The position numbers were made by a program, and so were the translations under genes. Of a stretch of DNA of 64,000 nucleotides, positions 3,639 to 25,754 are shown piece after piece. The notes below the pieces were generated by a model. That model searched no databases, was not told where the DNA came from, and worked only from the letters and a program-made list of their open reading frames with translations. The DNA is from Gemmatimonadales bacterium (GTDB lineage Bacteria > Gemmatimonadota > Gemmatimonadetes > Gemmatimonadales > GWC2-71-9), in the NCBI GenBank assembly GCA_036397755.1, contig DASWII010000009.1, positions 22,233-86,232 on the forward strand, in the 5' to 3' direction. Positions within the stretch are counted from its first letter, which is position 1. Every line of letters starts with the position of its first letter.

Positions 3639-3652
3639 CCTTCACCGCGTCA

Positions 3653-3681
3653 TTGTAGGCTCCGAGAGCACGCGCTAACTT
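3653..3681 (+). promoter_or_regulatory. possible promoter of yggS (TTGTAG-17-TAACTT)
   Basis: 51-nt gap after the DUF2723 gene. The -10 ends 8 nt before ATG 3690, with no SD. Confidence 0.25.
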
Positions 3682-3689
3682 TACAAGCT

Positions 3690-9280: not shown

Positions 9281-9806
9281 GCGCCCGGTGTTCTGGGCGA
9301 TTCTCGCGTCGGTCGTCGTCTCGGACTTCATCACCAAACAAATCGCCGTCGCCGCGCTGACGGGGCGTCCGCCGGTGCATATCGCCGGAGACTGGCTGCT
9401 GTTTCGACTGGTGTACAATCCCGGGGCGGCGTTTGGCGTGAACGTCGGGGAGCATTCGCGGTGGGTGTTCATGCTGCTGGCGCTGGTGGCCTTGGCCGTA
9501 CTCGGGTCGATGGTGCACCGGACCCTCCAGGCGCAATGGGTACGCCTCGTGGCGCTCGGATTGGTGTGTGGTGGGGCGCTGGGCAATCTGATCGACCGCG
9601 TCCGAAGCGCGCGCGGCGTGGTCGATTTCATCGACGTGTATATCGGCCCCCTGCACTGGCCGACCTTCAACGTGGCCGACATGTCGGTCTCCTGTGGTGC
9701 CGTCGCGCTTGCCGTGATCCTCTGGCAGGAGGGTCATCATCCCGAGACGGCGGCGGTCGTCGACCCTGAGAGGTCGGAGAGTCTGGGGCACGCCTCCGAG
9801 GCCTGA
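9264..9806 (+). CDS. lspA: lipoprotein signal peptidase (SPase II)
   Basis: 'YNPGAAFG', 'GNLIDR' and 'FNVADMS' with four hydrophobic segments. The start could instead be GTG 9288. Confidence 0.9.
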   Translation: MTSGARRPVFWAILASVVVSDFITKQIAVAALTGRPPVHIAGDWLLFRLVYNPGAAFGVNVGEHSRWVFMLLALVALAVLGSMVHRTLQAQWVRLVALGLVCGGALGNLIDRVRSARGVVDFIDVYIGPLHWPTFNVADMSVSCGAVALAVILWQEGHHPETAAVVDPERSESLGHASEA

Positions 9807-9817
9807 CGATTCCGACG

Positions 9818-10810
9818 GTGCGATTGCAGGTCACATCGGCGATCACCGAGCGCATCGATCGGTTCCTCGCCGAACAACTCGCGCTGTCGCGAACCGTCGT
9901 CGGCCGGCTGATCGCCGGCAACGCCGTCACGGTGAATGGGGAAGGGGCGCGGGCGTCGCGGCGGTTGAGCCGCGGTGATCTCATCCAGGTCGTGATCCCT
10001 GAAGCGCCGCCGCCCCGCACACTGGTTCCGTCACACCGGCCGCTGGACGTCGTGTTCGAAGACGAGCACCTACTGGTCGTGGACAAGCCTGCCGGCCTCG
10101 TGGTGCATCCCGCGCCCGGACACTGGGACGACACGTTGCTCAACGCGCTGGTGGGACGCGGGACCCGCCTGTCGCAGGCGGTTGGACGCCCGGGAATCCT
10201 CCATCGGCTCGATCGTGATACGTCGGGATTGATGATCGTGACCAAGACCGATGCGGCGCACCGTGCCCTGGCCCGGGATCTCGCGAGTCGAAGGGTGCTG
10301 CGGACGTACGCGGCGCTCGTGTGGGGGCATCTCGACGGTGCCGTCGAGGTCGATGCGTCCGTGGCCCGCCATCCGCGCGATCGCAAACGGATGGCGGTGC
10401 TCGCCACGGGACGGGCCGCCCGGACGCACTTCTCGGTGGTGGCGCGGTTCGAGTCCTGTGACCTGGTGCGTGCACGACTGGAGAGCGGTCGCACCCACCA
10501 GATTCGGGTGCACTGCGAGTACATCGGCCATCCCGTCGTGGGCGATCGGGTGTACGGCGGCGGTGGGGCCAAACGCATCTCGGGTCAGCCACGGGCGCAT
10601 GCGGACGCGCTGGACCGTGCGACCGCCCGGCAGGCATTGCACGCCGCCCGCCTCGGGTTCCAGCACCCCGCGTCCGGACACGCGATGCGCTTCGGGAGCG
10701 ACTGGCCGGTCGATCTGCGCCCTGCCCTCGCTCTTGCGGGGGACGATCCGACGTTGCTTGATCGTCACGAAGCCCTGGCGTACCTTGGCTTCGACACCGG
10801 AGAGAGCTGA
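9818..10810 (+). CDS. rluD: 23S rRNA pseudouridine synthase, RluA/RluD family
   Basis: S4-like N-terminus, catalytic motif 'HRLDRDTSGLMIV', and 'GRTHQIRVH'. Confidence 0.9.
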   Translation: MRLQVTSAITERIDRFLAEQLALSRTVVGRLIAGNAVTVNGEGARASRRLSRGDLIQVVIPEAPPPRTLVPSHRPLDVVFEDEHLLVVDKPAGLVVHPAPGHWDDTLLNALVGRGTRLSQAVGRPGILHRLDRDTSGLMIVTKTDAAHRALARDLASRRVLRTYAALVWGHLDGAVEVDASVARHPRDRKRMAVLATGRAARTHFSVVARFESCDLVRARLESGRTHQIRVHCEYIGHPVVGDRVYGGGGAKRISGQPRAHADALDRATARQALHAARLGFQHPASGHAMRFGSDWPVDLRPALALAGDDPTLLDRHEALAYLGFDTGES

Positions 10811-10920
10811 TCGGGTGATGACGCCGGCACCCTGACGCCGATCAGGTCCGCCGCGGTGGTAACATCCTCCGCGAACCCCTCACATCCGTTGAGCCACCAC
10901 GTGCCCTTGGAGTTGGCGGG

Positions 10921-13578
10921 ATGACCAGATCGAGCATTGCGCAGCGTGACCGTGCGGCGCTCGAGGCCCTGGAACGGCGGCTCGATGGCCACGACGCCGG
11001 TGCCATGAACAACGTGGGAGTGGTCTACTTCCAGCATGGCCTGCTTGAAGATGCGGTGCGGTGCTTCTCCGGGGCGTGCCAGGCCGACCCGACCATGGCC
11101 GTGGCCCAGGCCAACCTCGAACGCGCCAGCCGCGAAAGCGGCATCTACGATCGTCGAGTGGCGGGACTCCGGCAGCGGCTCGCGGCGGCGCCCGACGATC
11201 TGGAGGCGCGCTGGGCGCTGGCGACCGTCTACCGCGCGCTGGGGCAGCACGGCGCCGCGCGCAGCGAATTCGCCGAGCTGGTCAGCGCTGCGCCCGACCA
11301 CGTCGAGGCCCTGCTGGCGCTCGCGCTGTGCGAGCGTCAACTGGGGGATATGGACGCCTCGGTGCGATGGCTGCGCCAGGCGGAGCAGACCGCCCCCGAG
11401 CGGGCCGACCTCGCTCTCTACCTCGGGCAGGCGCTGTACCTCCAGGGCAGGAGCGACGCAGCGGCCGACCTCTTGGGTGCGGCGGCCGTTCGCTATCCCG
11501 AGCACTCGGATCTCCAATACCACCTCGGCGTCGTGCTTGGGGATCTGGGCCGCCACCAGGAGGCGCGGGAAGCGACCCACCGTGCCATCGAACTCAACCC
11601 GGCGCTCGGTCGCGCTGATCAGGTCGTGTCGCTCAGCAGTTTTCCCTTGATCCCCGTGAGTGCGCATACCGCTGCCGCGGGGGACGAGTCGAACCTTCAA
11701 CACTACGGTCTGGCGCGCTCCTTCCGCCATCAGGGGCTGTTGGCGGAGGCCCTGCGCGAGTACCGCCTGGCGCTCGATCGCGGCGAGGATCGGCTTCGGG
11801 TGATGCGCGGGATGGCCGAGACGCTGCTGCTGCGACGGGAACCGGCGGCGGCGCTCGAGCTGTACGATCCGCTGATGCGGGAGCAGCCGACGGCACAGGT
11901 GGCGAACGAACGCGGCGTCGCCCTGCATCAGCTGGGACGGTTGGAAGAAGCGCTCGAGGCATTTCACGACGCGCTGACGCGTGCCGCCGACGACGCGCTC
12001 GCGCGGAACAACCTCGCGATCACACTGGCCCAACTCGGGCGACACGAGGAAGCCGCCGGGCAGTTGGCGGAAGCGGTGCGCTGTCGACCACAGCTGGTTG
12101 TGCCGCGGGTGAATCTGGGCTTGCTGCTCCACAGCATGGGACGGGAACGACACGCGCTGCAGGCGTTCCGCCAGGTCGTGGAGGTCGCGCCGCAAACCGC
12201 TGCAGCATGGAATGGCATTGGACTGGTGCTGGTCGGGGCCGACCGTGTCGCCGACGCCCGCAACGCGTTCGTTCGGGCCGTCGAGGCGGATGCGGGATCT
12301 GCGGAGGCGCATTACAACTTGAGCTTCGCCCTGTCGCACCTCGGAGACTTCGATGGCGCGCTCCGCGCGGTGACCCGCGCGCAGACGCTGGACCCGTACT
12401 TCGTCCCACAGAAGTTCCGCTTCATCATTGCGGCGCAGCTCGAGGAGCAAGGCGTGGGCTTGCCCGAGATCTCGGCGGACGTGCCGGCGGACGTCGGCGC
12501 ACAAGGCCTCGTGCTGGACACCCGACAGTTCGAGGAACTGTTCGGCGCCCTCGAGCGGGAGGCGACCGTCAGCGCCGCTCCGGCGGAGGATCTCCTGACG
12601 CTCGCGCGCGACTATCGCGCACGCGGCATGCACGACCTTGCGGTCGCCGAGGTCGGTCGAGCCGTCGCGCGCGGCGCGGACCGTGTGGAAGCCGCTGTCC
12701 TGGTGGGAGAGATCTTCGAGGAACGGGGACTGCATGGCGAGGCGCTGGAGCGGTTCGAGAGCGCACTTGCGATCGATCCGGCACGACGGGAGGCCCAGCT
12801 TGGCGAACTTCGGGCAATCCTCGCCCTCGGTCGGCCACGCGACGGGGTGGCGCGCGCTCGGGCGGTGGCGCTGGAGCGCCCGAGTGACGTCGAGGCGCTC
12901 GGCACACTCGCCAGGTTCGAGTACGCCACGGGAGATCCCATCGTGGCGCTGGCCGTGCTGCAGCGCGCGCGCGCGCGCGCGCCGCAGCGTGCCGACCTCC
13001 TGCGGCTCGAAGGCGACATCGCGCTGGCGCTCGCGAAGCCGCAAATGGCGCGGGAAGCGTTTGAGCAGGCGCTCGAGTTCGAGCCCGATGATATCGAGAC
13101 CCGTGTGGCGCTCGGGGGCGCGTATCAGGCGCTCGATGAGGACGAACGGGCGGCCGCCTCGTATGAACAGGTGCTGGCGACCGCGCCCGGAGCAGAGCCC
13201 GCGGCCATCGCCTTGGCCGAAGTGTATCAGCGGGCGGGAGACGGTCCGCGCGCGGTCAACGTGCTCGTCGATCTCCTGTTGATCGATCCCACCGCACTCG
13301 GGGCGCTCACCCGGCTCGCGTACGCCCTGTTCGAGGTTGGGAGGGTTGCTCCGGCGGCCCAGGCCCTGGAGCGCGTGCTGGCACGTGATCCCGACAATGT
13401 GGACGCGCTGTGGTTGCAGGCACGGCTTTGGGCGCGCGCGCGGCGGTTCGACGATGCGGTGCAGTGTTGGGAGCGGGTCGTGGCCTTGGTGCCTGGTACC
13501 GAGCAGGCACGCCGCGCTCGACAGCACATCCGTACCGCGGGCGACCTCCGGCAAATCCTCACCACTGAGGCGGCGTAG
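10921..13578 (+). CDS. large cytoplasmic multi-TPR scaffold protein (first gene of the MglA locus)
   Basis: 885 aa of repeated A/L/G-rich TPR-like helical pairs (e.g. 'AEAHYNLSFALSHLGDFDGALRAVTRAQTLDP'). No signal peptide. GGAG lies 9 nt upstream of the ATG. Confidence 0.8.
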   Translation: MTRSSIAQRDRAALEALERRLDGHDAGAMNNVGVVYFQHGLLEDAVRCFSGACQADPTMAVAQANLERASRESGIYDRRVAGLRQRLAAAPDDLEARWALATVYRALGQHGAARSEFAELVSAAPDHVEALLALALCERQLGDMDASVRWLRQAEQTAPERADLALYLGQALYLQGRSDAAADLLGAAAVRYPEHSDLQYHLGVVLGDLGRHQEAREATHRAIELNPALGRADQVVSLSSFPLIPVSAHTAAAGDESNLQHYGLARSFRHQGLLAEALREYRLALDRGEDRLRVMRGMAETLLLRREPAAALELYDPLMREQPTAQVANERGVALHQLGRLEEALEAFHDALTRAADDALARNNLAITLAQLGRHEEAAGQLAEAVRCRPQLVVPRVNLGLLLHSMGRERHALQAFRQVVEVAPQTAAAWNGIGLVLVGADRVADARNAFVRAVEADAGSAEAHYNLSFALSHLGDFDGALRAVTRAQTLDPYFVPQKFRFIIAAQLEEQGVGLPEISADVPADVGAQGLVLDTRQFEELFGALEREATVSAAPAEDLLTLARDYRARGMHDLAVAEVGRAVARGADRVEAAVLVGEIFEERGLHGEALERFESALAIDPARREAQLGELRAILALGRPRDGVARARAVALERPSDVEALGTLARFEYATGDPIVALAVLQRARARAPQRADLLRLEGDIALALAKPQMAREAFEQALEFEPDDIETRVALGGAYQALDEDERAAASYEQVLATAPGAEPAAIALAEVYQRAGDGPRAVNVLVDLLLIDPTALGALTRLAYALFEVGRVAPAAQALERVLARDPDNVDALWLQARLWARARRFDDAVQCWERVVALVPGTEQARRARQHIRTAGDLRQILTTEAA

Positions 13579-14721
13579 ATGGCGATCGAGGGCCCCCTAC
13601 GCGAACTCGGCATCCACGATGTCTTTCAGCTCCTCGATCTGAGCCGGAAGACCGGTGTGCTCACGGTGGCATCCGGGCTGCGGCGCAATCGTGGGCAGGT
13701 GTATTTCGAAGATGGGGCGATCATCTACGCCAGCATTCAGACGAACCCGCATCCGCTGGGTAGTCTGCTGGTGCGGACGGGCCGGTTGTCAGCCGCTGAT
13801 GTCAGGCGGGCCCGGGACATGCAGCGCGCGGGCGACGGCCGCCGGCTCGGTGAGATCCTCGTCGCGATCGGTGCGGTTTCGCCCGGCGAGCTGGAGCGTC
13901 AGGTCCGCTCCCAGGTTGAGGAAGTCGTGTTCGAGGTGATGAGTTGGGATGAAGGGCACTTCTCGTTCGTCGAGGGCCCACTCGAGGACGTCGGTGCCGA
14001 TGCGACGACGGTGCGCGTCCCCACGAGCTCGCTGCTCCTCGAGGGGGCGAGGCGCATTGATGAATGGTCGCGGATCGAGAAGACCATTCCGCACGTCGGG
14101 GTAATCCCGGTACTGGCGGTCCCGAACGGAGATGGAGGGTTGGTGGAGTTGCAGTCGACGGATTGGAAGGTCCTGGCGTTGACCGACGGGGTGCGGTCGA
14201 TTCGGACGATCGCGCAGCAACTTGGAACGTCCGAATTCGATGTGGCGAAGACGGTATTCGGGTTGCACGCGGCCGGCCTGGTCGGTCTGCAGTTGCGCCC
14301 GAGCGACGCGGAGGAGGGGGCGGGTGAGGGCAACGAGGTACAGGATCTCTTGGCGGACGCGGCAAAGGCGCTGCAAGAGGGGGACGAGGATCGGGCGTGG
14401 CGTCGGGTCGAGGCCGCCCGGCGGCACACGGCCGAGTCGCCGGAGGTCGATGTGTTTCTGGGCGAACTTGAGCTGCGTCGTGGACGGCCGGCGACTGCCG
14501 AGGAAGCCCTACGCCGCGCGCTGCGGTACGATCCCATGCTCACGACCGCGCACCGGCTGCTCGGCGAGGCGGTCGCGAGGCAGGGACGCATCGGGGAGGC
14601 GGTCGACTGGTGGCAGCGCTGGTTATCCGTGAACGAGGAGCTCGTCGAGCCCGAGGACAGCAAGGTCGTGCGGGAGGCTATTCGGGCGGCCCTCACGCTC
14701 CAGAGTTTCCTGTATGAGTAG
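13579..14721 (+). CDS. DUF4388/PATAN-like domain protein with C-terminal TPRs
   Basis: N-terminus 'GPLRELGIHDVFQLLDLSRKTGVLTV...GQVYFEDGAIIYA...LGSLLV..G..S...LGEILV' fits the DUF4388 pattern, with a TPR tail. The ATG directly abuts the upstream TAG. Paralogue of 18865-20481. Confidence 0.72.
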   Translation: MAIEGPLRELGIHDVFQLLDLSRKTGVLTVASGLRRNRGQVYFEDGAIIYASIQTNPHPLGSLLVRTGRLSAADVRRARDMQRAGDGRRLGEILVAIGAVSPGELERQVRSQVEEVVFEVMSWDEGHFSFVEGPLEDVGADATTVRVPTSSLLLEGARRIDEWSRIEKTIPHVGVIPVLAVPNGDGGLVELQSTDWKVLALTDGVRSIRTIAQQLGTSEFDVAKTVFGLHAAGLVGLQLRPSDAEEGAGEGNEVQDLLADAAKALQEGDEDRAWRRVEAARRHTAESPEVDVFLGELELRRGRPATAEEALRRALRYDPMLTTAHRLLGEAVARQGRIGEAVDWWQRWLSVNEELVEPEDSKVVREAIRAALTLQSFLYE

Positions 14722-14724
14722 CCG

Positions 14725-15486
14725 ATGACGGAACGACGGCCGCGAGCACCGTGGGATCCGCACAGCCTTGATGCAGCAGAACGGCTGCGACGTCAGGGCG
14801 ACCTCGAGGCCGCCGCGCGGGTGGCCATTGATCGGCTGGAGCACGCACCCGGCGACGCCGCGGCCCACGACTTGTATGCCCGCGTGCTCGCGGACATGGG
14901 CAATCTGCCCGGGGCTGAATCCGAGTGGCAGGAGGTCCTCGGTCAACTTCCGCGGCACGCCGGTGCGCACAAGGGGCTGGGTTTCATTCGCTTCCGCGAG
15001 GGCCGGTTGGACGACGCGCTGGACCACTTGGAGATCGCGCTGGCGAGCGCTCCCGGCGATCCGGCCGTGGTGCAAGCGATGCGGACGGTGCGCGCGGCCT
15101 TACAACGCGAGGCGTCGCCGCCCCGCGATCGAGTATTCGAGGGACTCGAAGGGGCCGGGCGGGGGTTGTTGTTGGTGGATGCGCGCGGAGGCGTCTTGGG
15201 TGGGGCGGTGCGGGATGCGGACGGGTTTGACCGATCGGAACTCGTCGGCGGGTACGCCGCGGATCTCGTGCATGAGGCCCGCCGCACGACGGCGATGTTG
15301 CACCTCGGGTCGTGGGAGTGGGTGGTGGTCGAGGGAAGCGAGGGGAGCACGTACCTCGCCGCGCCGACCGACGAGGCCGTGTTGTGTATTCTGCGCGATC
15401 GTGGCGTGCCGGCCGCACGCCTCACGTTGCTGGCTGAACCGGCACTCGCCGCGGCGCGCGAGTGGCTCCACGAGCAGACCCTGTGA
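14725..15486 (+). CDS. TPR-Roadblock/LC7 fusion protein
   Basis: The N-terminal ~125 aa are TPR-like ('HKGLGFIRFREGRLDDALDHLEIALASAP'). The C-terminal ~110 aa resemble Roadblock ('RGLLLVDARGGVLGGAV...WEWVVVEGSEGSTYLA'). Confidence 0.65.
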   Translation: MTERRPRAPWDPHSLDAAERLRRQGDLEAAARVAIDRLEHAPGDAAAHDLYARVLADMGNLPGAESEWQEVLGQLPRHAGAHKGLGFIRFREGRLDDALDHLEIALASAPGDPAVVQAMRTVRAALQREASPPRDRVFEGLEGAGRGLLLVDARGGVLGGAVRDADGFDRSELVGGYAADLVHEARRTTAMLHLGSWEWVVVEGSEGSTYLAAPTDEAVLCILRDRGVPAARLTLLAEPALAAAREWLHEQTL

Positions 15487-15833
15487 GCGCGCACGTCCGC
15501 CGAGCGCTCGAGGAGATCACGCGCATTCGTGGGGTTCGCGGCGCCGTGCTCGCCGATCGAACCGAGGGCATCGTCGTGGCGGAGTCGGCGATGCTGGGGG
15601 TACGGCGTGAAGCCATCGCTGCCCTGGGCGCGAGCTTGGTGCGCCGCTGCGGGGTACTCTTGGAAGGCGGCGGGCTGGGCGTACCGAGACACGTGCTGCT
15701 CCAGGGACGGGAGGGAACCCTCGTGGCGGTGCCCGTCACCGACGAGTTGCTCCTCCTGGCCGTTGGGGATGCGGCGGTGAACGTGGGCCTTGTCCGTGCC
15801 GAGCTGCAGCGGGTCGCGCGGGAACTCCGATGA
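15483..15833 (+). CDS. Roadblock/LC7-domain protein (MglC-like size)
   Basis: 'ITRIRGVRGAVLADRTEGIVVAES....AALGASL...LLQGREGTLVAVPVTDELLLLAVG' fits the Roadblock pattern. The GTG overlaps the upstream stop (GTGA). The ORF track offers ATG 15462 as an alternative start. Confidence 0.72.
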   Translation: MSAHVRRALEEITRIRGVRGAVLADRTEGIVVAESAMLGVRREAIAALGASLVRRCGVLLEGGGLGVPRHVLLQGREGTLVAVPVTDELLLLAVGDAAVNVGLVRAELQRVARELR

Positions 15834-16300
15834 GAAACACGCGCGCGGTGGAGGCGTGGACGATCGGTCCGCTCGAGCATTTCGTCGGGCAAGCCGGAGC
15901 ACGCTTGGTGCTGATCATGACGCCGGCCGGTCAGGTGATGGCGCAGTACGGCTTCGCGCGCGCCGTCGATGTCATGACGGCGGCGGCGCTTGGCGCCGGC
16001 ATTGTGGCGTCGAGCAGCGAGATCGCCTCTATGCTCGGGCAGCCGCCGTTCGCTGCGCTCGGTCACCGTGGCACCCATCACGGGATCGTGCTGTCGTCCT
16101 TCGATTCCCCGCGCGGTCGCTTGCTCGTGCTGGTAGTTTACGGGGTGGAGACGTCTCTCGGACTCGTGCAGCTGTTCCTCGGGACGCTCGTGGACGATCT
16201 GGCCGCGGCCTGTCCGGTTCCCGAGTCGCGCGGCCCGGTCCTGGCCGTGAACTTCGAGAACGAACTCAACCGCAGCCTCGACGCTCTGTTCGGACAGTAA
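15830..16300 (+). CDS. mglB: MglB-like Roadblock/LC7 protein (GTPase-activating partner of MglA)
   Basis: 156 aa. '[27 protein letters not shown]' and the C-terminal 'LDALFGQ' resemble Myxococcus MglB as I recall it ('VVLVVIFDNRTSLGLVRLRIK', 'IDNLFSE'). Sits directly upstream of mglA. ATGA overlap. Confidence 0.78.
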
Positions 16301-16301
16301 C

Positions 16302-16901
16302 GTGCCGCTCATCAACTTCACCACCCGAGAGATTACCTGCAAGATCGTCTACTACGGGCCTGGCCGGTCGGGAAAGACAACCAACCTGCAGTACATCTTC
16401 GACCGCGTGCCGGAAGGCCGCCGTGGGCGGATGGTGTCGCTGGCCACGCGCGCGGACCGCACGCTTTTCTTCGATTTTCTGCCGCTTGACCTCGGACAGA
16501 TCTCGGGATTCGCCACGCGGTTTCAGCTGTACACGGTTCCTGGGCAGGTGTACTACGACGCGACGCGCCGACTGGTGCTGCAGGGAGCGGACGGCGTCGT
16601 GTTCGTGGCGGACAGCCAGGCCCGCCAGCTCGATGAGAACATCGAAAGTCTGCAGAACCTCCAGGCCAATCTCCTCGGTCAAGGCGTCGATGTCCGCGGG
16701 CTCCCGATGGTCATCCAATACAACAAGCAGGACCTCCCGCCCGACCTCGTGCTCGCGCCCGCCGAGTTGGATCGTGCCCTCAACTTCCGCGGGGTGCCGA
16801 CGGTATCCGCCGACGCGCTGGTGGGACGCGGGGTGTTCGAGACGCTGAAGGCGGTGTCCGGTCTCGTACTCAAGCGGCTGAGCGAGGATTCCACGGCGTG
16901 A
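16302..16901 (+). CDS. mglA: MglA-family Ras-like small GTPase
   Basis: '[32 protein letters not shown]', '[10 protein letters not shown]', '[11 protein letters not shown]' and 'YNKQDLP' are near-identical in pattern to M. xanthus MglA (P-loop, intrinsic Arg, switch-2 Gln, NKxD). Confidence 0.93.
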
Positions 16902-18865
16902 CCGCCGAGATCAACCCGCGGTGTACGTTCGACACCTTCGTCGAAGGTTCGGAGAACCAGATGGCGTGTTCCGCGGCGCGCGCGGCGGCCGGCGCGCTCG
17001 GTGCGCGGTACAACCCGCTCTGCATCATCGGCGCCAGCGGACTCGGCAAGACGCACCTCCTCATGGCGGTCGGGCACGAGGTCAAGGCGGTCCAGCCAGA
17101 CGTCAGCATGATTTACTGTTCGGCGGAGGAGTTCGCGAAGGAGTTTCACGCGGCGGTCGCTGCCGGTGAGGGGCCGAGTTTTCGCGCTCGGTACGAGGCG
17201 CTGGATCTGTTGTTGCTGGACGACGCGCAGGCGCTCACGTTTCAACCCGAGATCCAAAGCGAACTGCTGCGGTTGCTCGATCGGCTGCTGCAAGATGGGC
17301 GGCAGATGATGCTCAGTTGCGATCTCTCCCCCTCCGAGTTCGAGGCCTTGGACGAGCAGTTGGCTCAGCGATTGGCTGGAGGCTTGGTGGTGGAGGTGAC
17401 GCTCCCGGACTACGAGACGCGGCTCGCCATTCTGCGCCGCCGGGCGGCGGATCGATCGACGCAGTTCGGAGAGGGGATTCTGGAAGAGGCCGCTCGGGGG
17501 GAGTACCGCAACGTTCGCGAGCTGCTCGCGGCGCTGCATCGCCTCGCCGCCCTGCAGGCGATGCAGGGCACGCCGCTCACGCTCTCGGAAGCCCGCCTTG
17601 GTGTGTCGAGCGAGGCGGTGCGGATGGGTGGGAGGGTCGCCCAGGCACCAGCCAGGGGTGTCGCGGTCGCGACGCCGGCCGACGCGAACGAGTTCTCGAC
17701 GTTTCTGGCGGACGTGAGTCACGCCGTGGAGGAGCAGGTCGATCACTGGCGTGAGGCCGTGGCGCGGGCCGTGATGGTGTGGGAACCCGAGGGGTATCGC
17801 ACCGCACGGCTCGAGCAGGCCCTTGAAGGGAACCTCCTCGGTCCGGTCGAACGTATTGTCGCGCGGTTCGAGGCCGACGTCCGGCGCCTGCGGCGATTGC
17901 AGGAGGCGGTCGGTGAGGTCGCCCCGGAGCGCGCCAGCGATCCGGTGTTTTTCGACCCGGACCGCACGGCCGAGGCCGAACTCCTTCTCAAGGACGTGAT
18001 GGCCGCCGTGCGTCCCCTCCCGGTGCCTTCCGACCGGTGGGGTGAGGGGAGCTTCATCGAGACGGACTGCAGTCGCGCGGCGGTGTCGGCCGTCGCGACG
18101 GTTGCCGGCGAGCCCGGCAGACGCTACAACCCGCTGGTCTTGGTGGGATCACCCGGGGTGGGGAAGTCGCACTTGCTGCATGTCGCGGCTCACCGGTTGA
18201 GTAACCAGGGCGTGACGGTTGCGTGTTTGTCGGCCCACCACTTTGTGGACGAACTCACGGAAGCCCTGATGCGCGAAACGGAGGACCGCTTTCGCGCCTG
18301 GCTCGGCCGGGCCGGGGCGCTCCTCCTGGACGATCTCCAGCTGGTTGGCCAGCGCGCCGCGGCGGCAGACGAACTGGTGTATCTCATCGACCGGTTCTTG
18401 GCAGGTGAACGGCAGCTCGTCTTTGCGTTGAGCGGTGAGCGTCACGCGATCGAGGGCCTCGATCCGCGCATCGTGTCCCGTCTCGAGGGCGGACTCACCG
18501 TGGCGATCGATCGCCCCGATCGCGAGCTGCGGCGCCAGCTCACGATCGCGAAGCTGGAGGAGCACTACGGTGCGGCCGAACTCGAGCTGGTCGATTACCT
18601 GGCCGCGCAGCCCGCGCAGTCGGCGCGGTCCGTGATCGGGCTCGTTCAGCGAATCCTGAATGCGGCCGAAGCCCGGGGCGAACCCCCCAGCGGCGGGTTG
18701 GCGCGCGACCTGCTCGAGGGCGTGCGGCCGGCGGCGTCCCGCCGATCGGTGCGCGTACGCACGAGCGGAGTGGCCGGGCCGGCCACGGCACCCACGAGTC
18801 GCGAGAAGACGGTGTGGGCCTGGCCCGATCTGCTCGATCGGATCGTCGATGAGGAGGCGGGCTAA
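16898..18865 (+). CDS. tandem DnaA-type (domain III) AAA+ ATPase lacking DnaA domains I and IV
   Basis: Module 1 has '[15 protein letters not shown]...[18 protein letters not shown]', Walker B 'LLLLDDAQ', '[23 protein letters not shown]' and 'NVRELLAAL'. Module 2 has '[18 protein letters not shown]', 'LLLDDLQ', '[19 protein letters not shown]' and '[13 protein letters not shown]'. No C-terminal HTH is visible. The GTG overlaps the mglA stop. Confidence 0.75.
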
Positions 18866-20481
18866 TGGCGGTCCGTGGCAATCTCGCGGAAGTCTCGCTT
18901 CCCGATGTCCTGCAGCTGTTGGCCCTTGGGCGTAAAACGGGCAGCCTGACCGTTACGGACCGTGCCAACGTCGGGTACATCTACTTGGATGATGGACGCA
19001 TCTCGTTCGCTTCCATTGTGAATCGCCGAGATCGGCTTGGCGACCTGTTGGTCAAACGCGGACGGATTACCCTGGAGCAGCTCGAGCAGGCCGTGGAGCG
19101 CCAAGGACGCGAGCGCGACCGCCGTCTCGGAGACATCCTCGTGGAGGACGGGGTGATCGACCGGGAAGAGTTGCATCGCTACGTGCGGGTGCAGATCGAG
19201 GAGGCTGTGTATTTCCTGTTTACCTGGGCGCGTGGGACGTTCCGCTTCGACAGCGATGCGCGCCCTGAGGAGCAGGACTTTCTCGTATCGATCAATCCCG
19301 AGAGCCTGCTGCTCGAGGGCGCGCGGCGGGTGGATGAATGGAGCATCATCGCCAAGCGGATTCCGTCATTCGACATCATCTTCGAGGTCGATACGGAGCG
19401 CATTGCCCACGCCGGCGTCCAGCTCTCGGCGGTCCAGGATCGCGTGTTGCCGTATCTCGACGGGACGCACGATGTGACGGCGATTGCCGACCAGACCGGC
19501 TTATCGGAGTTCGAAACGGGCAAGGCGCTGTTTGGACTGCTTTCGGCCGGGTTCCTCAAGCGCGTCGGTCGCTCACGGCCCGGCCCATCGGGAAGTCACA
19601 TCGCCCCGGTGGAGGAGCATCGCAACCTCGGGGTCGCGTTCTACCGTACCGACATGCTGGAGGAGTCGTTGCGGGAATTCCGGCAACTGGTCGAGTTACG
19701 GCCCACGGATGCGGAGGCGCTCTACTACCTGGGTCTCATCGCGTTACGACAAGCACGCTGGGACGAGGCGGTGGCGCGCCTCCGCGCAGCGATGGACTGC
19801 GGTGGTGGGCGGCCGGTAGTGCGGTATCACTACGCGCTCGCGTTGGAATCTGGTGGGTATCTCACGGAGGCGGATGCTGCCTACCGTGAGGCGCTCGCGC
19901 ATGCGCCGCATGATTGGCGCTTTCTGCAGGGATGGGGGATCGTGACCCTCTTGCGCGGTGATCATGACAGCGCGGCACAACGACTCGATCGCGCGCGGGA
20001 GGTGGCGGCGGACGAGCCTCTCGGAGCCCTATGGTACTGGGCGCGGGCGCTCTGCGCGACCGCCGCCGGTGACCTCGAGGCCGCCGAACGCTATCTCCGG
20101 CTCGGTCTCGCGGCCGTACCGGAGAACCCGGCGCTGCGGAACAACTTGGCCGTGGTGCTCGAGAGCCAAAACCGCCTCGCCGAAGCCGAGTCGTTGCTGG
20201 TGCACGCGATCGCGGAGGACCCGTGGCTGCCCCATCTGTCCAAGAACCTCGGGGATGTGCACTACCGGAACGCGAAGTACGACGAAGCGTGGGACGCCTA
20301 CCAGCGGGTCATTCGCCTGCGCCCGGAGTTCGGCGACGATGTGTATTTCCGATTGGGGAACATCGCCTATCGACGCATGGATCGGGAGTCGGCTGTCGCG
20401 CTGTGGCGTCAGGCGCTCGCGCTCAATCCGGGACACGAGTTGGCGCGCACGAATCTCGATACCTTGGAAGCACTGACGTAG
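18865..20481 (+). CDS. DUF4388/PATAN-like domain protein with a long C-terminal TPR array
   Basis: 'GNLAEVSLPDVLQLLALGRKTGSLTV...GYIYLDDGRISFA...LGDLLV..G.I....LGDILV' can be aligned by eye to 13579-14721, and TPRs fill the rest. The ATG overlaps the upstream TAA (TAATG). Confidence 0.72.
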   Translation: MAVRGNLAEVSLPDVLQLLALGRKTGSLTVTDRANVGYIYLDDGRISFASIVNRRDRLGDLLVKRGRITLEQLEQAVERQGRERDRRLGDILVEDGVIDREELHRYVRVQIEEAVYFLFTWARGTFRFDSDARPEEQDFLVSINPESLLLEGARRVDEWSIIAKRIPSFDIIFEVDTERIAHAGVQLSAVQDRVLPYLDGTHDVTAIADQTGLSEFETGKALFGLLSAGFLKRVGRSRPGPSGSHIAPVEEHRNLGVAFYRTDMLEESLREFRQLVELRPTDAEALYYLGLIALRQARWDEAVARLRAAMDCGGGRPVVRYHYALALESGGYLTEADAAYREALAHAPHDWRFLQGWGIVTLLRGDHDSAAQRLDRAREVAADEPLGALWYWARALCATAAGDLEAAERYLRLGLAAVPENPALRNNLAVVLESQNRLAEAESLLVHAIAEDPWLPHLSKNLGDVHYRNAKYDEAWDAYQRVIRLRPEFGDDVYFRLGNIAYRRMDRESAVALWRQALALNPGHELARTNLDTLEALT

Positions 20482-20509
20482 CGGGCCTGCGCGGAGGGAG
20501 GGCGGTCGT

Positions 20510-21370
20510 ATGACGGATGCGTTGATCCAACAGCTGCGGGCGCAGTATGAGTCGATTTCCGAGCGTCTCGACGGTGTGGAGTCCGTCGCGGATCGCGAGG
20601 CGATCAAGCGCGCCATCATCGAACTCTTCAAGACCGTCGACCTGTCCATCAACGATCTCGCGGCCCTGAAGGAGGAGATTCGTGGACTGGTGGATCGGTA
20701 CAAGCAGATCGCCGAGCACCAAAGCGGCGAGCCAACGCCCCAGTTTGCCGCGGAGGCCCCCGTCATCCACGCGGATCACATCGGGGCGTCCACCTTCATG
20801 GAAAAGGGTTGGAGCCTCATCTCGCTCGGTGACTATCCGGGTGCGATCCAGGCGTTGACCAAGGCGCTGCAACTCTCGCCGGGAGAGGTGCGGGCGGAGT
20901 CGCTCCTCGGTTGGGCGCAGATGCTCCACGCCGACTACGACGCGGCACTCGAGACCCTCAGCGGCGTGTTGCAGAGGGATCCGACCAATTCCCTGGCCCG
21001 TATCAACGTGGGCTACGTGTGCCTCAAGAAGCAGATGTTCGGAGAAGCGATCGAGCACCTTTCCAAGGCCATCCGCCTCGACAACGACAAGAAAGCGACC
21101 CTGTACGCGCACTTCTACATCGGGCTGGTGTACTTCCAACGGGAGATGTACGAGGAGGCACAGACGTTCTTCGAGAAGACGCTGCGGTTGGGGCCCAATC
21201 TGCTCGAGGCCTATTACGAGCTGGGGCGGGCGCTGTGGTTCGGGGGCGACAAGGACGGGGCCCGTTCCGCGTGGGAGCAGGGGTTCGCGGCGAACAAGTT
21301 CAACCCGTGGGGCAAGCGGTGTGGGGAAGTGCTGGACGCCGTCTCGCAGGGACAGGAGCCGCCACGCTGA
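20510..21370 (+). CDS. coiled-coil plus TPR protein
   Basis: N-terminal heptad-like region, then TPRs ('AHFYIGLVYFQREMYEEAQTFFEKTLRLGPN'). GGAGGGA lies upstream of the ATG. Confidence 0.75.
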   Translation: MTDALIQQLRAQYESISERLDGVESVADREAIKRAIIELFKTVDLSINDLAALKEEIRGLVDRYKQIAEHQSGEPTPQFAAEAPVIHADHIGASTFMEKGWSLISLGDYPGAIQALTKALQLSPGEVRAESLLGWAQMLHADYDAALETLSGVLQRDPTNSLARINVGYVCLKKQMFGEAIEHLSKAIRLDNDKKATLYAHFYIGLVYFQREMYEEAQTFFEKTLRLGPNLLEAYYELGRALWFGGDKDGARSAWEQGFAANKFNPWGKRCGEVLDAVSQGQEPPR

Positions 21371-22239
21371 TCGCGCTACTTCCCCTGGTCGTTTGGGTCC
21401 AGATGGCGGTGGTGCAGGTTGGGCGGGTCACCGCGGTGTACTGGCCGGGTGACGAGGTGCTCGCCACGGGCCTAGCCGAGTTTGCCGATGCCCAGAGCCG
21501 ATGGCCCGGATTACCCGCCCCACCTGCGCGTCCGGTGCGCCTCATCGTGACGCCGGATGACAGCGCCTTTGATTCCATCGTGGGTGGTCGGGTGCCGGAA
21601 TGGGGGGCGGCCGTGGCCATGCCGGCATCCAACAGCATCGTGATCCGGGCGTCGGACGGCGTGCCCGCTGTGCGGCAGCACCTGCGCCACGAACTTGCGC
21701 ACCTGGCATTGCGCGAGGCGGTGCCGCGGGGGGTGCCCCGCTGGCTCGACGAGGGATACGCGGTGGTCGCGGCGAACGAGTGGGACGGCACGGATGTCCT
21801 GCGGGTCAACTGGGCCATGGTGCGGGGGGTGCGGCCGTCGCTTCGTGACGTCGATCGCGCCCTGCAGGAGCCGTCGGCCACCAACGCCGCCGGAGCCTAC
21901 GCGTTCGCCGCGACCGCCGCAAGCATGTTGAAGCGGCTGGGGCGGGAGCGGGGGTTCGAGCCGATCTTCTCCGGACTACGCGCGGCTGGGGATCTTGACG
22001 CGGCCCTGCGAGCGACACACCAGATGACGATTGGCCAATTCGAGGAGCAATGGCAGCGGGACCTTCGGCGGAGGTACGGGTGGATGACATTACTCGGTTC
22101 GGCAACCGTGTTCTGGGCGTTCGCCGCCCTGATTCTGTCGGCTTTGTGGTCGCGAAGTCGCATGCGATATGACGCCCGGCGGGCGGCGTTGGACGAGGGT
22201 TGGACGGTGGCTGCAAGTGACGCCGGGACCGATGCTTGA
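21319..22239 (+). CDS. HEXXH (peptidase MA-like) protein with N- and C-terminal hydrophobic anchors
   Basis: 'HELAHLALRE' followed by 'WLDEGYAVV'. C-terminal TM 'WMTLLGSATVFWAFAALILSALW'. GTG 21319 gives an RR-plus-hydrophobic N-terminus; ATG 21403 is the alternative start. The part of the track ORF upstream of 21319 is judged a frame artefact. Confidence 0.55.
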   Translation: MWGSAGRRLAGTGAATLIALLPLVVWVQMAVVQVGRVTAVYWPGDEVLATGLAEFADAQSRWPGLPAPPARPVRLIVTPDDSAFDSIVGGRVPEWGAAVAMPASNSIVIRASDGVPAVRQHLRHELAHLALREAVPRGVPRWLDEGYAVVAANEWDGTDVLRVNWAMVRGVRPSLRDVDRALQEPSATNAAGAYAFAATAASMLKRLGRERGFEPIFSGLRAAGDLDAALRATHQMTIGQFEEQWQRDLRRRYGWMTLLGSATVFWAFAALILSALWSRSRMRYDARRAALDEGWTVAASDAGTDA

Positions 22240-22266
22240 CGCCTATGGAACCTGCCGTTAGCGTGA

Positions 22267-22458
22267 GTGTCTATGTCTGACAGGGCAGGTTCGCCCGCGC
22301 GACTGCAGTTCCGTCCGCGCAACGTAACGTTGCTCGCGGCGGCGCTGATATCGGTTGGTGTCGGCTACGCGCTGTTGGCGCGCGGCGATACCACGGTGGC
22401 ACCGATCTTGTTGGTGCTGGGCTACTGTGTGTTGTTTCCACTGGGGCTCGGCCTGTAG
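22267..22458 (+). CDS. small two-helix membrane protein (hypothetical)
   Basis: 63 aa with two hydrophobic helices ('VTLLAAALISVGVGYALLA', 'VAPILLVLGYCVLFPLGLGL'). It fills the gap before tRNA-Val. No homolog recognised. Confidence 0.4.
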   Translation: MSMSDRAGSPARLQFRPRNVTLLAAALISVGVGYALLARGDTTVAPILLVLGYCVLFPLGLGL

Positions 22459-22467
22459 CGGTCGCGG

Positions 22468-22541
22468 GGGCGAATAGCTCAGGGGTCCAGAGCGCCTGCC
22501 TTACAAGCAGGATGTCGGGGGTTCGAATCCCTCTTCGCCCA
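22468..22541 (+). tRNA. tRNA-Val (anticodon TAC)
   Basis: Cloverleaf folded by hand: acceptor GGGCGAA/TTCGCCC, D stem GCTC/GAGC, anticodon stem CCTGC/GCAGG with loop CTTACAA, T arm GGGGG-TTCGAAT-CCCTC. CCA is not encoded. Confidence 0.9.
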
Positions 22542-22563
22542 CTGTCGGAGGTGCGCGGGCTTG

Positions 22564-24381
22564 ATGCTCGGTTACGAAATGCAGAGTGACTCACGGAGGA
22601 TTGGTGTGATACTCACACGGTTGGTGCGCGTGCTGAGCCTGGTCACGGTGGCGGTCGTGGGGCTTGAGGCGACGGAAGAGCTCCACGCCCAGCGATCGAT
22701 GGAGCGTGTTCTCATGCTCGCCCCGGCGCCGTCCGCTGGTGTATCGCCGGACTTCGCCATCGCGTTCGCCGACGAGGCGCGGAAGCGGATGAACAGCAAG
22801 TTCCGCAACCGGCTCACGGTGATTCCCACCGACGACATCTGTGAATTGCTCAGGCAATCGGCGTTCGACTGTGAAGTGATCCTGAACGATCAGGACGCGG
22901 AACGGCTCGCGCGGGCCATGCGTGCGGACCTCTACATCGTGGGCACCGTGTGGTACGACGACGCCGCCCCCCAGGGGAGGTTTCACCTGATCGACATCGG
23001 ACGGTCGGGTGTCTCGGGGTGGATGGAGGTGAAGGGTGCGCCGGGCGACGCGCCTCGGCGGTACGCGGATATCCTGGCCGACTCGCTCGAGAATCAGGTA
23101 CGCGCCGGCGAGCTGGCGCGCGAATGCGTGGAGAAACGCGACGGTAACGACTACGATGCGGCGCTCCAGCGCGCGAGGCGGGTCTTTGAGGTCTACCCCA
23201 ACCATCCGGCAGCAGCGCAATGCGCCGCCTACGCCGTCGAGGCGATGGGACAGCCGGCCGACAGTCAGATCCCGTATTACGAGCGCATGGTGCGCGGCGA
23301 CTCCCTGCAGGAGCGCGCATGGCAGCAGTTGGGGCGGTTGCACCAGGAAAAAGGTGACTCCCTCAAGGCGCTCGAGGCGTTTCGCCGGCAGCTCTATCTC
23401 ACCCCCGGCGATCGCCAGCGGTGGCGAGGAATCGTCGCCGGGTACATGATGGTGGGAGAACACGCACAGGCGCGTGATCTGGCGGACGAGTGGTTGGCGG
23501 ACAACAGCGATGACGTCGAGTTCATCCAGTTGAAGACGCGCGCCTGCTTCGAGGGAGCACTGTGGGGGTGCGCTGTCCAAGGGCTGGCGGCGCAGTACGG
23601 GCGAGATAGCGCGCTGATCGGCGACAGCCTGTTCTACCAGCAGATCATTGCGGCGGCGCAGGCCGACGAGGACACGGACGCGCTGCTGCGGTGGACGTCC
23701 GAGGCGATTCGGTGGGTGCCGCACAATACGACGTTCTGGCGGGCGCATGCGGACGCGCTGAGCGAGGCCGGGATGGCCGACTCGGCGGTGGCGGTTTACG
23801 AGCACGTCGTGTTTCAGGACCCGACGGACATCGCCACGGCCCTGCTACTCTCCCGCCGCCTCATCGAGGGGTTGAGCATCGACACGGTGAGCCCCGTGGA
23901 CACGACGGCGTTGCTGGAAGCGGGAGAGTATCTCGATCTGGTGGTGTCGCAGAGCCAGGACACGTCCGTGCTGATGAACGCGGCGGTGCTGTTCTATCAG
24001 CCCGCGCAGCAGCTTGTCCAGACGCGACAGGCGCTGCCGATAGCCGTCAGCTTTCTCGAGAAGTCCCTCGAGGCCGACGTGCTGAATCGACTGGGTGACC
24101 GTGCGAGTTTCTTCTTGGCGTGGGGACTGTTGTACAGTGTCTACGACTTCGATCCCCAGATCGTGCAGTATGCGGAGCGAATCCAGAATCTGAGCGCGGC
24201 GGAGCGCGCCGACGCTTGTATCTTGGTGGGTCAGGAAGAACAGATGGTTCAACGAGGCCTGGAAGCCATTGCCGCGGGCGCGTCGGTGTCGGCGGCCGCG
24301 GCACAGGACTTTGCCTCGCGGTTCGCCAACTTCCGACAGCGAATCCCGACGCTGCGCGAGGCGTTTGAATGTAGGCGGTAG
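22564..24381 (+). CDS. secreted/periplasmic TPR-like repeat protein (hypothetical)
   Basis: N-terminal signal-like 'LVRVLSLVTVAVVGLEA', then helical repeats ('AWQQLGRLHQEKGDSLKALEAFRRQLYLTP'). GGAGG lies 12 nt upstream of ATG 22564. The track starts at TTG 22561. Confidence 0.6.
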   Translation: MLGYEMQSDSRRIGVILTRLVRVLSLVTVAVVGLEATEELHAQRSMERVLMLAPAPSAGVSPDFAIAFADEARKRMNSKFRNRLTVIPTDDICELLRQSAFDCEVILNDQDAERLARAMRADLYIVGTVWYDDAAPQGRFHLIDIGRSGVSGWMEVKGAPGDAPRRYADILADSLENQVRAGELARECVEKRDGNDYDAALQRARRVFEVYPNHPAAAQCAAYAVEAMGQPADSQIPYYERMVRGDSLQERAWQQLGRLHQEKGDSLKALEAFRRQLYLTPGDRQRWRGIVAGYMMVGEHAQARDLADEWLADNSDDVEFIQLKTRACFEGALWGCAVQGLAAQYGRDSALIGDSLFYQQIIAAAQADEDTDALLRWTSEAIRWVPHNTTFWRAHADALSEAGMADSAVAVYEHVVFQDPTDIATALLLSRRLIEGLSIDTVSPVDTTALLEAGEYLDLVVSQSQDTSVLMNAAVLFYQPAQQLVQTRQALPIAVSFLEKSLEADVLNRLGDRASFFLAWGLLYSVYDFDPQIVQYAERIQNLSAAERADACILVGQEEQMVQRGLEAIAAGASVSAAAAQDFASRFANFRQRIPTLREAFECRR

Positions 24382-24431
24382 TCACTTGTACGGCGGACGG
24401 TATCGGCCTACATTTGCCGGCTGTCTCATCG

Positions 24432-24505
24432 GGGGCTGTAGCTCAGTTGGTTAGAGTGCCGGTCTGTCACACCGGAGGCCGCGGGTTCAAGTCCCGTCAG
24501 CCCCG
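24432..24505 (+). tRNA. tRNA-Asp (anticodon GTC)
   Basis: Acceptor GGGGCTG/CAGCCCC, D stem GCTC/GAGT, anticodon stem CCGGT/ACCGG with loop CTGTCAC, T arm GCGGG-TTCAAGT-CCCGT. CCA is not encoded. Confidence 0.9.
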
Positions 24506-24524
24506 CTTGCCGTCCAAACCATGA

Positions 24525-25752: not shown

Positions 25753-25754
25753 CG

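Follow-up and report, generated by a model that had tools for sequence, protein, structure and literature searches.

The ATPase core of DnaA, domain III, is generally viewed as a dedicated engine of replication initiation, and the domain III derivatives that we know of (Hda, DnaC and IstB) all act on DNA transactions. What, then, might a protein built from two such domains be doing when its gene is coupled to that of the Ras-like polarity GTPase MglA? This question is raised by a stretch of 64,000 nucleotides (nt) from a Gemmatimonadales bacterium (contig DASWII010000009.1, positions 22,233 to 86,232), hereafter called the window, which carries directly downstream of mglA a gene for a 655-amino-acid (aa) protein that we have named DnaA2x. 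An earlier note, made from the letters of the window, had described this protein as two fused DnaA-type AAA+ modules and had argued that it is not the replication initiator. The analyses described below lead to the well-supported conclusion that DnaA2x is a non-initiator paralogue of DnaA and forms part of an MglA island. Its gene has a constant place in a cytoplasmic island of Gemmatimonadota, where it is translationally coupled to its neighbours; the island encodes MglA, MglB and proteins with Roadblock, PATAN and tetratricopeptide repeat (TPR) domains. The occurrence of a DnaA-type ATPase inside a polarity and chemosensory cluster across this phylum suggests that an ATPase of the replication type has been put to another use. 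Literature searches turned up no account of such an architecture or of any DnaA-like protein that partners MglA.

Two DnaA domain III modules in one polypeptide

The DnaA2x gene is an open reading frame (ORF) at positions 16898..18865 of the forward strand, and its translation begins at a GTG codon. As had been claimed earlier, this start codon overlaps the stop codon of mglA in the tetranucleotide GTGA (16898..16901, forward strand; junction ggcGTGAccg), such that 4 nt are common to the two genes. At the opposite end, the sequence reads TAATG (18863..18867, forward strand), in which the DnaA2x stop codon has 1 nt in common with the ATG of the following gene for a PATAN-TPR protein. The G+C content of the window is ~67%. 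All of the motifs that the earlier note had quoted from the two copies are present in the translation where it had located them.

Several comparisons identify two AAA+ modules of the DnaA type in this chain. The Pfam model Bac_DnaA matches two stretches of DnaA2x (whole-protein E 4.9e-72), and the NCBIfam DnaA model TIGR00362 aligns only via its profile positions 102-335 of 437, which represent domain III. Clade placement was made from the scores of each half against curated family profiles. TIGR00362 yields 226 bits for aa 1-236 and 144 bits for aa 380-608. For the same two halves, the scores are 98 and 50 bits with the Hda model TIGR03420 (cut-off 194.8), 54 and 45 bits with the IstB model (cut-off 200), and 18 and 21-28 bits with the DnaC and DnaI models, respectively. 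The DnaA model is thus by far the highest scoring for each half, and the assignment to the DnaA clade, over Hda, IstB and DnaC/DnaI, is upheld.

Module 1 (aa 3-236; 16904..17605, forward strand) is a DnaA domain III with AAA+ core and lid, in which Walker A K51, Walker B D108/D109, sensor-1 D142, box-VII R158 and sensor-2 R207 can be recognized. A search of Protein Data Bank (PDB) sequences with this module retrieves domain III of DnaA from Bacillus subtilis, Thermotoga maritima and Aquifex aeolicus (E 1e-43 to 1e-30). An AlphaFold2 model of DnaA2x, made from a 66-sequence family alignment and having a mean predicted local distance difference test score (pLDDT) of 86.6, superposes on B. subtilis DnaA domain III (8bv3) with a template modelling (TM) score of 0.95 and a root-mean-square deviation (rmsd) of 1.5 Å over 233 columns, as determined with Foldseek. 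Module 2 (aa 379-608; 18032..18721, forward strand) is a second, more diverged domain III that carries Walker A K423, Walker B D478/D479, box-VII R524/R528 and sensor-2 R577 and has lost the sensor-1 motif 'SDR'. In the model, its secondary-structure pattern is identical to that of module 1. The initiator-specific helix pair between strand beta2 and the Walker B strand, for which a structural check had been advised, is found in both modules (aa 76-88/92-100 and aa 446-458/462-470).

The two modules are both closer to canonical DnaA than to one another. Across the family, the mean identity to B. subtilis DnaA domain III is 44% for module 1 and 36% for module 2, and the mean identity between the modules is 32%; for module 1 of the window protein itself the value is 38.5%. 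These identities therefore indicate either an old duplication or a separate recruitment of both modules.

The remaining parts of an initiator are missing. Pfam and NCBIfam profile scans of DnaA2x detect no DnaA domain I, no helix-turn-helix domain IV and no other DNA-binding domain, the C-terminus and linker included; no part of DnaA2x aligns with TIGR00362 profile positions 1-101 or 336-437, and the linker and the tail match no profile model when scanned separately. The gene is adjoined by mglA and the PATAN-TPR gene rather than by dnaN, no second DnaA-like gene is found within the 64-kb window, and no cluster of DnaA boxes is evident (the 64 kb contain 4 near-matches, where 2.6 would be expected, and all of them lie away from the gene). 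Both its domain content and its genomic context are thus unlike those of an initiator, as the earlier note had reasoned from the same absences. Because defining features of the DnaA, Hda, DnaC/IstB and type II AAA+ families were looked for and are missing from DnaA2x, the protein is placed outside all of them. A possible role in anti-phage defence was considered as well and rejected, since the PADLOC matches are weak and reflect only a generic P-loop (the best, mad8, reaches 35.8 bits over 88 profile positions).

The family is under strong constraint, with a mean column identity of 67%. Residue conservation was evaluated in 121 family sequences. The Walker A lysine and the sensor-2 arginine are invariant in both modules. 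The Walker B Asp-Asp pair is invariant in module 1; in module 2, D478 is invariant and D479 is present in 120 of the 121 sequences. Module 1 invariably retains the DnaA-type sensor-1 aspartate D142; in the sensor-1 region of module 2, only Thr/Ser 510 is retained. The box-VII positions have the opposite tendency: R158 of module 1 is arginine in 100 sequences and glycine in 17, whereas R524 and R528 of module 2 are invariant, with R528 being arginine in 121/121. These patterns suggest an asymmetric pair of modules. The family N-terminus conforms to 'MTxxLNPxFRFDTFVVG', a consensus in which the clamp-binding motif of the QL[SD]LF type is absent.

A fixed member of a polarity and chemosensory island

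More than 100 full-length homologues of DnaA2x (641-674 aa; query coverage 99-100%) were found, and those with names belong to Gemmatimonadales or Gemmatimonadota. Their identity to the window protein is 45-50%, except for two closer relatives at 98% and 69%. NCBI labels them 'DnaA/Hda family protein', and the JGI label is 'chromosomal replication initiator protein DnaA'. In a genome scan with each species represented by a single genome, 537 related stretches were confirmed. The 80 best of these were analysed, and every one is full length; 79 are labelled Gemmatimonadota and one is labelled only 'Bacterium HR33'.

These 80 genome loci, along with two more (L001 and L002), constitute a set of 82 loci in which gene neighbourhoods were compared. 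The mglA gene resides immediately upstream of the DnaA2x gene in all 79 loci for which upstream sequence is available, and in 73 of them the two genes have the 4-nt ATGA/GTGA overlap, so that the coupling to mglA first noticed in the window is real and is kept in relatives. On the downstream side, the next gene encodes a PATAN(DUF4388)-TPR protein in 82/82 loci, and in 75 of them its start codon overlaps the preceding stop codon by 1 nt. The order of the core is large TPR, PATAN-TPR, TPR-Roadblock, Roadblock, MglB, MglA, tandem DnaA-like protein, PATAN-TPR and TPR. This core is embedded in chemotaxis (che) genes in 70 of 75 informative loci, where cheY-cheA-cheC and cheR-cheD-cheB-cheW-cheW surround it. 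One representative stretch (L169, 1-21989) carries, in this order, rluD; cheW, cheY, cheA and cheC; the genes from large TPR through the downstream PATAN-TPR; cheR, cheD, cheB, cheW and cheW; genes for a TPR protein, a membrane Peptidase_MA_2 protein, a 61-aa protein and another TPR protein; and rsmH of the dcw cluster. The same che-embedded layout is seen in L001 and L003, and overall in about 70 of the 82 loci. There is no gene for a methyl-accepting chemotaxis protein (MCP) in the che-island stretch of L169 despite its three cheW genes, and this stretch consequently does not encode the substrate of CheR, CheB and CheD.

The window belongs to a che-less minority, along with L002, L005, L008 and L010; in all, the island is without che genes in 5 relatives. 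Its island (10811-24524) contains no che genes, which it has either lost or never had. It lies between rluD and rsmH, the position occupied in relatives, with lspA, ileS and divIVA upstream. PATAN neighbours of mglA and a Group 1 MglA in Gemmatimonadetes have been noted before, with no DnaA-like gene among them (Wuichet and Sogaard-Andersen, PMC4316618).

A recurrent helical repeat between the modules

The earlier note could not assign the linker of ~160 aa that it saw between the two copies. This segment comprises a disordered spacer and a single unit of a helical repeat that recurs in other proteins. The spacer (aa 240-263; 17615..17686, forward strand) has pLDDT values <50 and no conservation in the family alignment. 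It is followed by a helical linker domain (aa 264-372; 17687..18013, forward strand; helices with pLDDT 78-94) that begins with a conserved 'EFxxFLxDV' helix (the EF helix) and continues with a single ~95-aa 'WxxEGY ... FExDV ... DPD' repeat.

A profile of aa 258-392 was searched against 1.84 billion cluster representatives and matched 416 proteins. Beyond the family and its fragments, the matches are long proteins with 7-18 tandem units of ~95 aa, for which the archaeal repeat consensus is '...IEEWKAEGYNVSRLEKLL...FEKFEEDIQRLKELEEKL...IRSKLKDPDRI...'. In the reverse direction, a hidden Markov model (HMM) made solely from 45 archaeal repeats matches 121/121 Gemmatimonadota proteins and 0/121 shuffled controls, and it locates the repeat of the window protein at aa 277-361 (E 5e-12). 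Neither Pfam models nor PDB sequences nor Foldseek comparisons yield a match to the 'WxxEGY' repeat. The linker thus defines a helical repeat that lies outside Pfam and PDB and is common to giant archaeal proteins.

Three architectures were encountered among these long proteins. In the first, an N-domain is followed by 7-8 repeats, a DnaA domain III and a double zinc ribbon (P0138, P0147, P0177, P0218, P0275 and P0277, the last of which is named 'Thermoplasmata archaeon'). In another, found in Thermoplasmata (P0176 and P0222), 7-8 repeats follow DUF835, an inactivated KaiC that archaeal response regulators employ as an output domain (PMC5847659). A further arrangement comprises repeats and a zinc ribbon alone (P0134 and P0276). 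With the archaeal DnaA module, B. subtilis DnaA shares 64% identity, module 1 shares 40% and module 2 shares 32%. DnaA domain III thus appears to have been recruited separately in these proteins, adjacent to the same repeat.

Some further features of these uncharacterised archaeal proteins were recorded, in which a bacterial-type DnaA module is unexpected. The Thermoplasmata repeat-DnaA proteins (loci L083-L088) are 1250-1420 aa long and begin with an N-domain of ~115 aa that has no assignment. At one locus (L085), the repeat-DnaA gene is followed by a paralogue that lacks the ATPase. A resemblance of the N-domain to PATAN, which would have given a Rosetta-stone connection with the PATAN gene downstream of DnaA2x, was considered and rejected as not significant, even though the expected region was aligned (hhalign probability 0.9%, E 0.06).

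A conserved C-terminal peptide and natural reduced variants

Module 2 is followed by a disordered tail (aa 609-655; 18722..18862, forward strand; pLDDT <50) that ends in the conserved motif 'SREKxVWxWPDxxDRxxEE'. Residues S634, K637, W640, W642, P643 and R648 are invariant in 66 sequences.

Reduced forms of the protein were recovered on metagenome contigs by a search anchored on the MglA of the window. Where MglA identity is at least 63%, the tandem gene is almost always found in the locus; where it is 62% or lower, the tandem gene is missing with one sole exception (L139), and the loci in this lower range presumably come from other phyla. The exceptional locus carries a divergent tandem gene (4657-6621) whose product is 38% identical to DnaA2x, next to an MglA of 61% identity. 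Here, too, mglA is upstream and PATAN is downstream, with a 66-nt gap in place of the 4-nt overlap, and the locus probably represents a more distant lineage.

To take a census of the slot between mglA and the downstream PATAN gene, 27 loci holding both genes were compared. The tandem form occupies the slot in 21 of them. Three loci encode proteins of ~390-470 aa with one module, the EF helix, the repeat and the tail, in which the arginine finger is kept (L128, about 2769-3930; L134, about 4600-6015; L136, about 1396-2736). One encodes a 174-aa protein with the EF helix, repeat and tail and no AAA+ module (L130, 627-1151), and the other two encode mini-proteins of 81 aa (L121, 4609-4854) and 74 aa (L127, 3481-3705). 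The C-terminal motif is kept by every one of these reduced variants.

The mini-proteins, which still abut the PATAN gene, read 'MAKEPQKTDEEEGGEFADFLADVSQEIAQRVE...GLIVEWPNVVDRIIEEIR' in L121 and '...GTEFADFMADISNEISERVG...GMILDWSNVVDRMIEEML' in L127. They retain just an EFxDFLxDV-type motif ('EFADF[LM]ADxS') and a C-terminal 'WPNVVDRIIEE' or 'WSNVVDRMIEE' of the WPxxxDRxxEE type. The two non-AAA+ motifs are therefore the part that is never lost from the mglA-PATAN slot, and comparison of the sequences indicates that the AAA+ modules are an addition to, or a loss from, a two-motif core. This natural deletion series, which runs from two modules through one module and linker only to a two-motif mini-protein, offers ready comparisons for experiments.

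Neighbouring genes and a possible signalling input

All of the island genes in the window are on the forward strand. The mglA gene (16302..16901) encodes a Ras-like GTPase of 199 aa that matches MglA of Myxococcus xanthus (E 9e-73) and Thermus thermophilus (E 1e-67). It is preceded by genes for an MglB-like Roadblock protein of 156 aa (15830..16300; E 2e-8 to M. xanthus MglB structures; Robl_LC7), a second Roadblock/LC7 protein of 123 aa (15462..15833; Robl_LC7 26 bits, above the cut-off) and a TPR-Roadblock fusion of 253 aa (14725..15486). The fusion matches TPR families, and its Robl_LC7 match at aa 146-223 is below the cut-off, yet its orthologues carry Robl_LC7. Farther upstream are a first PATAN (DUF4388) and TPR protein of 380 aa, PATAN1 (13579..14721; DUF4388 E 1e-32), and a large TPR protein of 885 aa (10921..13578; TPR families), which is the first island gene in the window and has the same position in 71 loci. 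Downstream of DnaA2x, and translationally coupled to it, is a second PATAN (DUF4388) and TPR protein of 538 aa, PATAN2 (18865..20481; DUF4388 E 5e-38). A TPR protein of 286 aa (20510..21370) comes directly after PATAN2 in the window and after cheR-cheD-cheB-cheW-cheW in most relatives.

The PATAN proteins suggest a link to a second messenger. The NCBIfam model for the MshE-type cyclic di-GMP (c-di-GMP) motif, which has a cut-off of 38 bits, scores PATAN2 at 51.7 bits and PATAN1 at 34.8 bits, just below this threshold. Two tandem motifs of the form 'RLGxxLVxxGxIxxxxLxxAxxxQ' are visible in the helical insertion of the PATAN domain (PATAN2 aa 57-109; PATAN1 aa 59-109). A c-di-GMP input to the island module is suggested by these sequences.

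Outside of the coupled genes, a Peptidase_MA_2 protein (~21397-22239) with a HELAH motif and hydrophobic segments at each end, and a 606-aa TPR protein (22561-24381) with a signal-peptide-like N-terminus, are always found after the island. Judging from these features, the two proteins appear to be membrane-bound or periplasmic and may stand outside the cytoplasmic module. The upstream flank (3690-10810) carries yggS-like, divIVA, PNP-family phosphorylase, ileS, dksA/traR-like, lspA and rluD genes, and the downstream flank (24525-27689) is the dcw cluster (rsmH, ftsL-like and ftsI); both recur in relatives. Elsewhere in the window, an ORF at 319-1134 encodes a DisA-type diadenylate cyclase (DAC) protein, a c-di-AMP synthase that is unrelated to DnaA2x.

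Possible functions of DnaA2x

The reading that we favour is that DnaA2x is an adaptor for the MglA/PATAN module built on an ATP-dependent, self-assembling platform of the DnaA type. We put this forward with middling confidence; most of the uncertainty lies in the mechanism. DnaA2x would serve as an adaptor or scaffold of the MglA polarity module, with the EF helix and the C-terminal peptide acting as partner-binding elements. Candidate partners, namely MglA, PATAN-TPR and other TPR proteins, are at hand in the island, which encodes six TPR-containing proteins in addition to MglA. The DnaA-type modules would confer ATP control on this tether: when bound to ATP, they are predicted to join head to tail via their box-VII arginines, as DnaA domain III does, which might yield a multivalent or polymeric adaptor, or else a form of gating. 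Module 1 would likely be the tight-binding, hydrolysing switch site, because it keeps the DnaA-specific sensor-1 aspartate, a residue that reportedly underlies the very tight nucleotide binding of DnaA (Kawakami et al. 2006). Module 2 could act as the arginine-finger donor with a looser, regulatory nucleotide site, and hydrolysis of ATP would reset the assembly.

A bolder version of this proposal is speculative, and we would grant it a clearly smaller chance. It holds that a DnaA-type AAA+ protein has been removed wholly from replication to become an ATP-powered, self-assembling polarity scaffold under a Ras-like GTPase, fed by a chemosensory pathway and by c-di-GMP, and that the 'WxxEGY' repeat is a dedicated partner domain whose pairing with DnaA modules recurs in Thermoplasmata. 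If it were true, the DnaA fold would for the first time be seen in a non-DNA, cytoskeleton-like role. A phylum-wide family of DnaA domain III proteins is wired into an operon for MglA polarity, Che and putative c-di-GMP signalling, which gives bacterial polarity modules an unexpected component with predicted ATP dependence.

Several observations weigh against the adaptor-platform proposal. The relative placement of the two modules is uncertain in the AlphaFold2 model (predicted TM score 0.49). The AAA+-less variants show that some lineages manage without ATP control, which might therefore play a minor part or one different from that proposed, and the archaeal repeat-DnaA genes at the loci checked have no MglA, Roadblock or PATAN neighbours. 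A basic residue aligned with B. subtilis K222, the 'B-motif' residue that contacts single-stranded DNA (ssDNA) in DnaA, is kept in both modules (R116 in 118/121 sequences; K/R486 in 118/121) and fits nucleic-acid binding at least equally well. Finally, module 1 carries the substitutions R116Q, R117P, R143L and R154Q in the window protein and its two nearest relatives (P0001 and P0002) only, and one of these four lost basic residues is the equivalent of E. coli R281, a stabiliser of DnaA oligomers. A link between the loss of these residues and the loss of che genes was considered and rejected, as other che-less loci keep them.

The kept B-motif residue, along with the initiator-specific helix pair of both modules, would also be expected of an ATPase that binds nucleic acid or the nucleoid, forming an ATP-dependent spiral on ssDNA or attaching to the nucleoid and thereby anchoring or positioning the MglA/Che complex relative to the chromosome. 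Precedents exist in the positioning of chemosensory arrays by the ParA-type proteins PpfA/ParC, which are ATPases encoded in che operons, and in the nucleoid-bound FrzCD of Myxococcus, around which Frz arrays are scaffolded. The che set, with three cheW genes, cheA, cheR, cheB and cheD and no MCP gene, makes another array scaffold conceivable. We nonetheless consider a nucleoid anchor unlikely: profile scans find no double-stranded-DNA-binding domain, the position aligned with the hydrophobic 'H-motif' residue I190 of B. subtilis is His, Asn or Gln in module 1, the window protein has lost R116, R117, R143 and R154 from that module, and lineages without AAA+ modules fill the slot with a mini-protein that has only the EF motif and the tail. 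The last of these points also bears on a regulator resembling Hda, in which a module would dock on domain III of the true DnaA and insert an arginine finger or cap filaments, thus tying replication to polarity or the cell cycle. Such a role would suit modules that are nearer to canonical DnaA (44% and 36%) than to each other (32%), the invariant arginine finger of module 2, and an island that has rluD on one side, the cell-division cluster dcw on the other and, a few genes upstream, divIVA. It is improbable all the same, since the family N-terminus has no clamp motif, the scores with the Hda model (98 and 50 bits) are far below its cut-off of 194.8, and the tightly coupled neighbours are all polarity or chemosensory genes, none of them for replication. 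Moreover, variants that keep the slot without any AAA+ module imply that the conserved core job is not that of an ATPase acting on DnaA, and a homologous fusion exists in Thermoplasmata, archaea that use Orc1/Cdc6 rather than DnaA.

Two other explanations concern the neighbouring Roadblock genes and the name that databases give to the family. In the earlier note, the surplus Roadblock/LC7 proteins were suggested, as a speculation, to act on this ATPase as well as on MglA, in which case they would control its cycle directly. Three conserved Roadblock-domain genes do precede mglA, but MglA modules described so far already account for extra Roadblock proteins (M. xanthus MglC and RomY), and the island of L121, which has no AAA+ modules, still has Roadblock genes. 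This explanation thus has a slim chance, even though it accords with the general proposal of Koonin and Aravind (2000), as cited in PMC4316618. The idea that DnaA2x is the initiator of replication, whether intact or as a degenerate copy, is hardly credible. Its summed TIGR00362 score of 366 bits does exceed the equivalog cut-off of 343.9 bits, and the JGI family name is that of the initiator, but this score is the sum of two domain III matches. Domains I and IV, an adjoining dnaN and a cluster of DnaA boxes are all missing, and the family is under strong constraint in a fixed operon that is not devoted to replication. The case exposes an annotation trap, in that half-matches add up to a total above the DnaA cut-off, and JGI pipelines already mislabel the family as initiators.

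Comparison with known systems

DnaA2x resembles DnaA in that both modules are full domain III units with an AAA+ core, the initiator-specific helix pair and a lid, and in the Walker A and B motifs, the box-VII arginine and the sensor-2 motif 'NVRELL', with module 1 also keeping the sensor-1 aspartate. It differs from DnaA by having two modules per chain, an additional helical repeat domain and a docking-type peptide at its C-terminus, and by lacking domains I, II and IV, without which no DnaA boxes would be recognized. Its gene lies in a polarity and chemosensory operon rather than at oriC beside dnaN. Hda/HdaA likewise is a DnaA-derived AAA+ protein that has no domain IV and carries a conserved arginine finger. 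However, Hda consists of a single module with an N-terminal clamp-binding motif, neither of which is true of DnaA2x, and the genomic context of DnaA2x is not one of replication.

The presence of two AAA+ modules per polypeptide recalls the type II AAA+ proteins p97, NSF and ClpB. Those proteins belong to a different clade and form closed hexameric rings with pore loops, whereas both modules of DnaA2x carry the initiator-specific wedge that in DnaA enforces open spirals. Foldseek comparisons with type II tandem AAA+ proteins give rmsd values of about 24 Å (range 22-27 Å) and TMq values of about 0.27 (range 0.26-0.30). Another parallel is found in the Thermoplasmata 'WxxEGY' proteins (for example P0147, P0138 and P0277), which have the ~95-aa repeat in common with DnaA2x, as judged by reciprocal HMM searches, and several of which carry a DnaA domain III without domain IV C-terminal to the repeats. 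Whereas DnaA2x has one repeat, they have 7-18; their DnaA module is single, double zinc ribbons are located at the C-terminus, and in some of them DUF835, the inactivated KaiC, takes the place of the DnaA module.

The island as a whole can be compared with the polarity module of M. xanthus, which comprises MglA, MglB, MglC and RomR/RomX and is driven by Frz. We know of no counterpart of the DnaA-type AAA+ protein in Myxococcus. The common features are an MglA that is ~60% identical, an MglB homologue, extra Roadblock proteins and a possible che-type link, and TPR effectors are plausible in the island by analogy with SgmX of M. xanthus. In Gemmatimonadota, unlike in M. xanthus, the components reside in one operon-like island that in most relatives includes the che genes, and this island additionally encodes the DnaA-type AAA+ protein and a pair of PATAN proteins that bear motifs of the c-di-GMP type. 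The occurrence of PATAN genes (PatA and PixG-type regulators) beside mglA/mglB was noted in earlier surveys (Makarova 2006 and Wuichet 2014, via PMC4316618), which mention no DnaA-like ATPase. In the arrangement described here, the gene for such an ATPase lies between mglA and the PATAN gene and is coupled to both.

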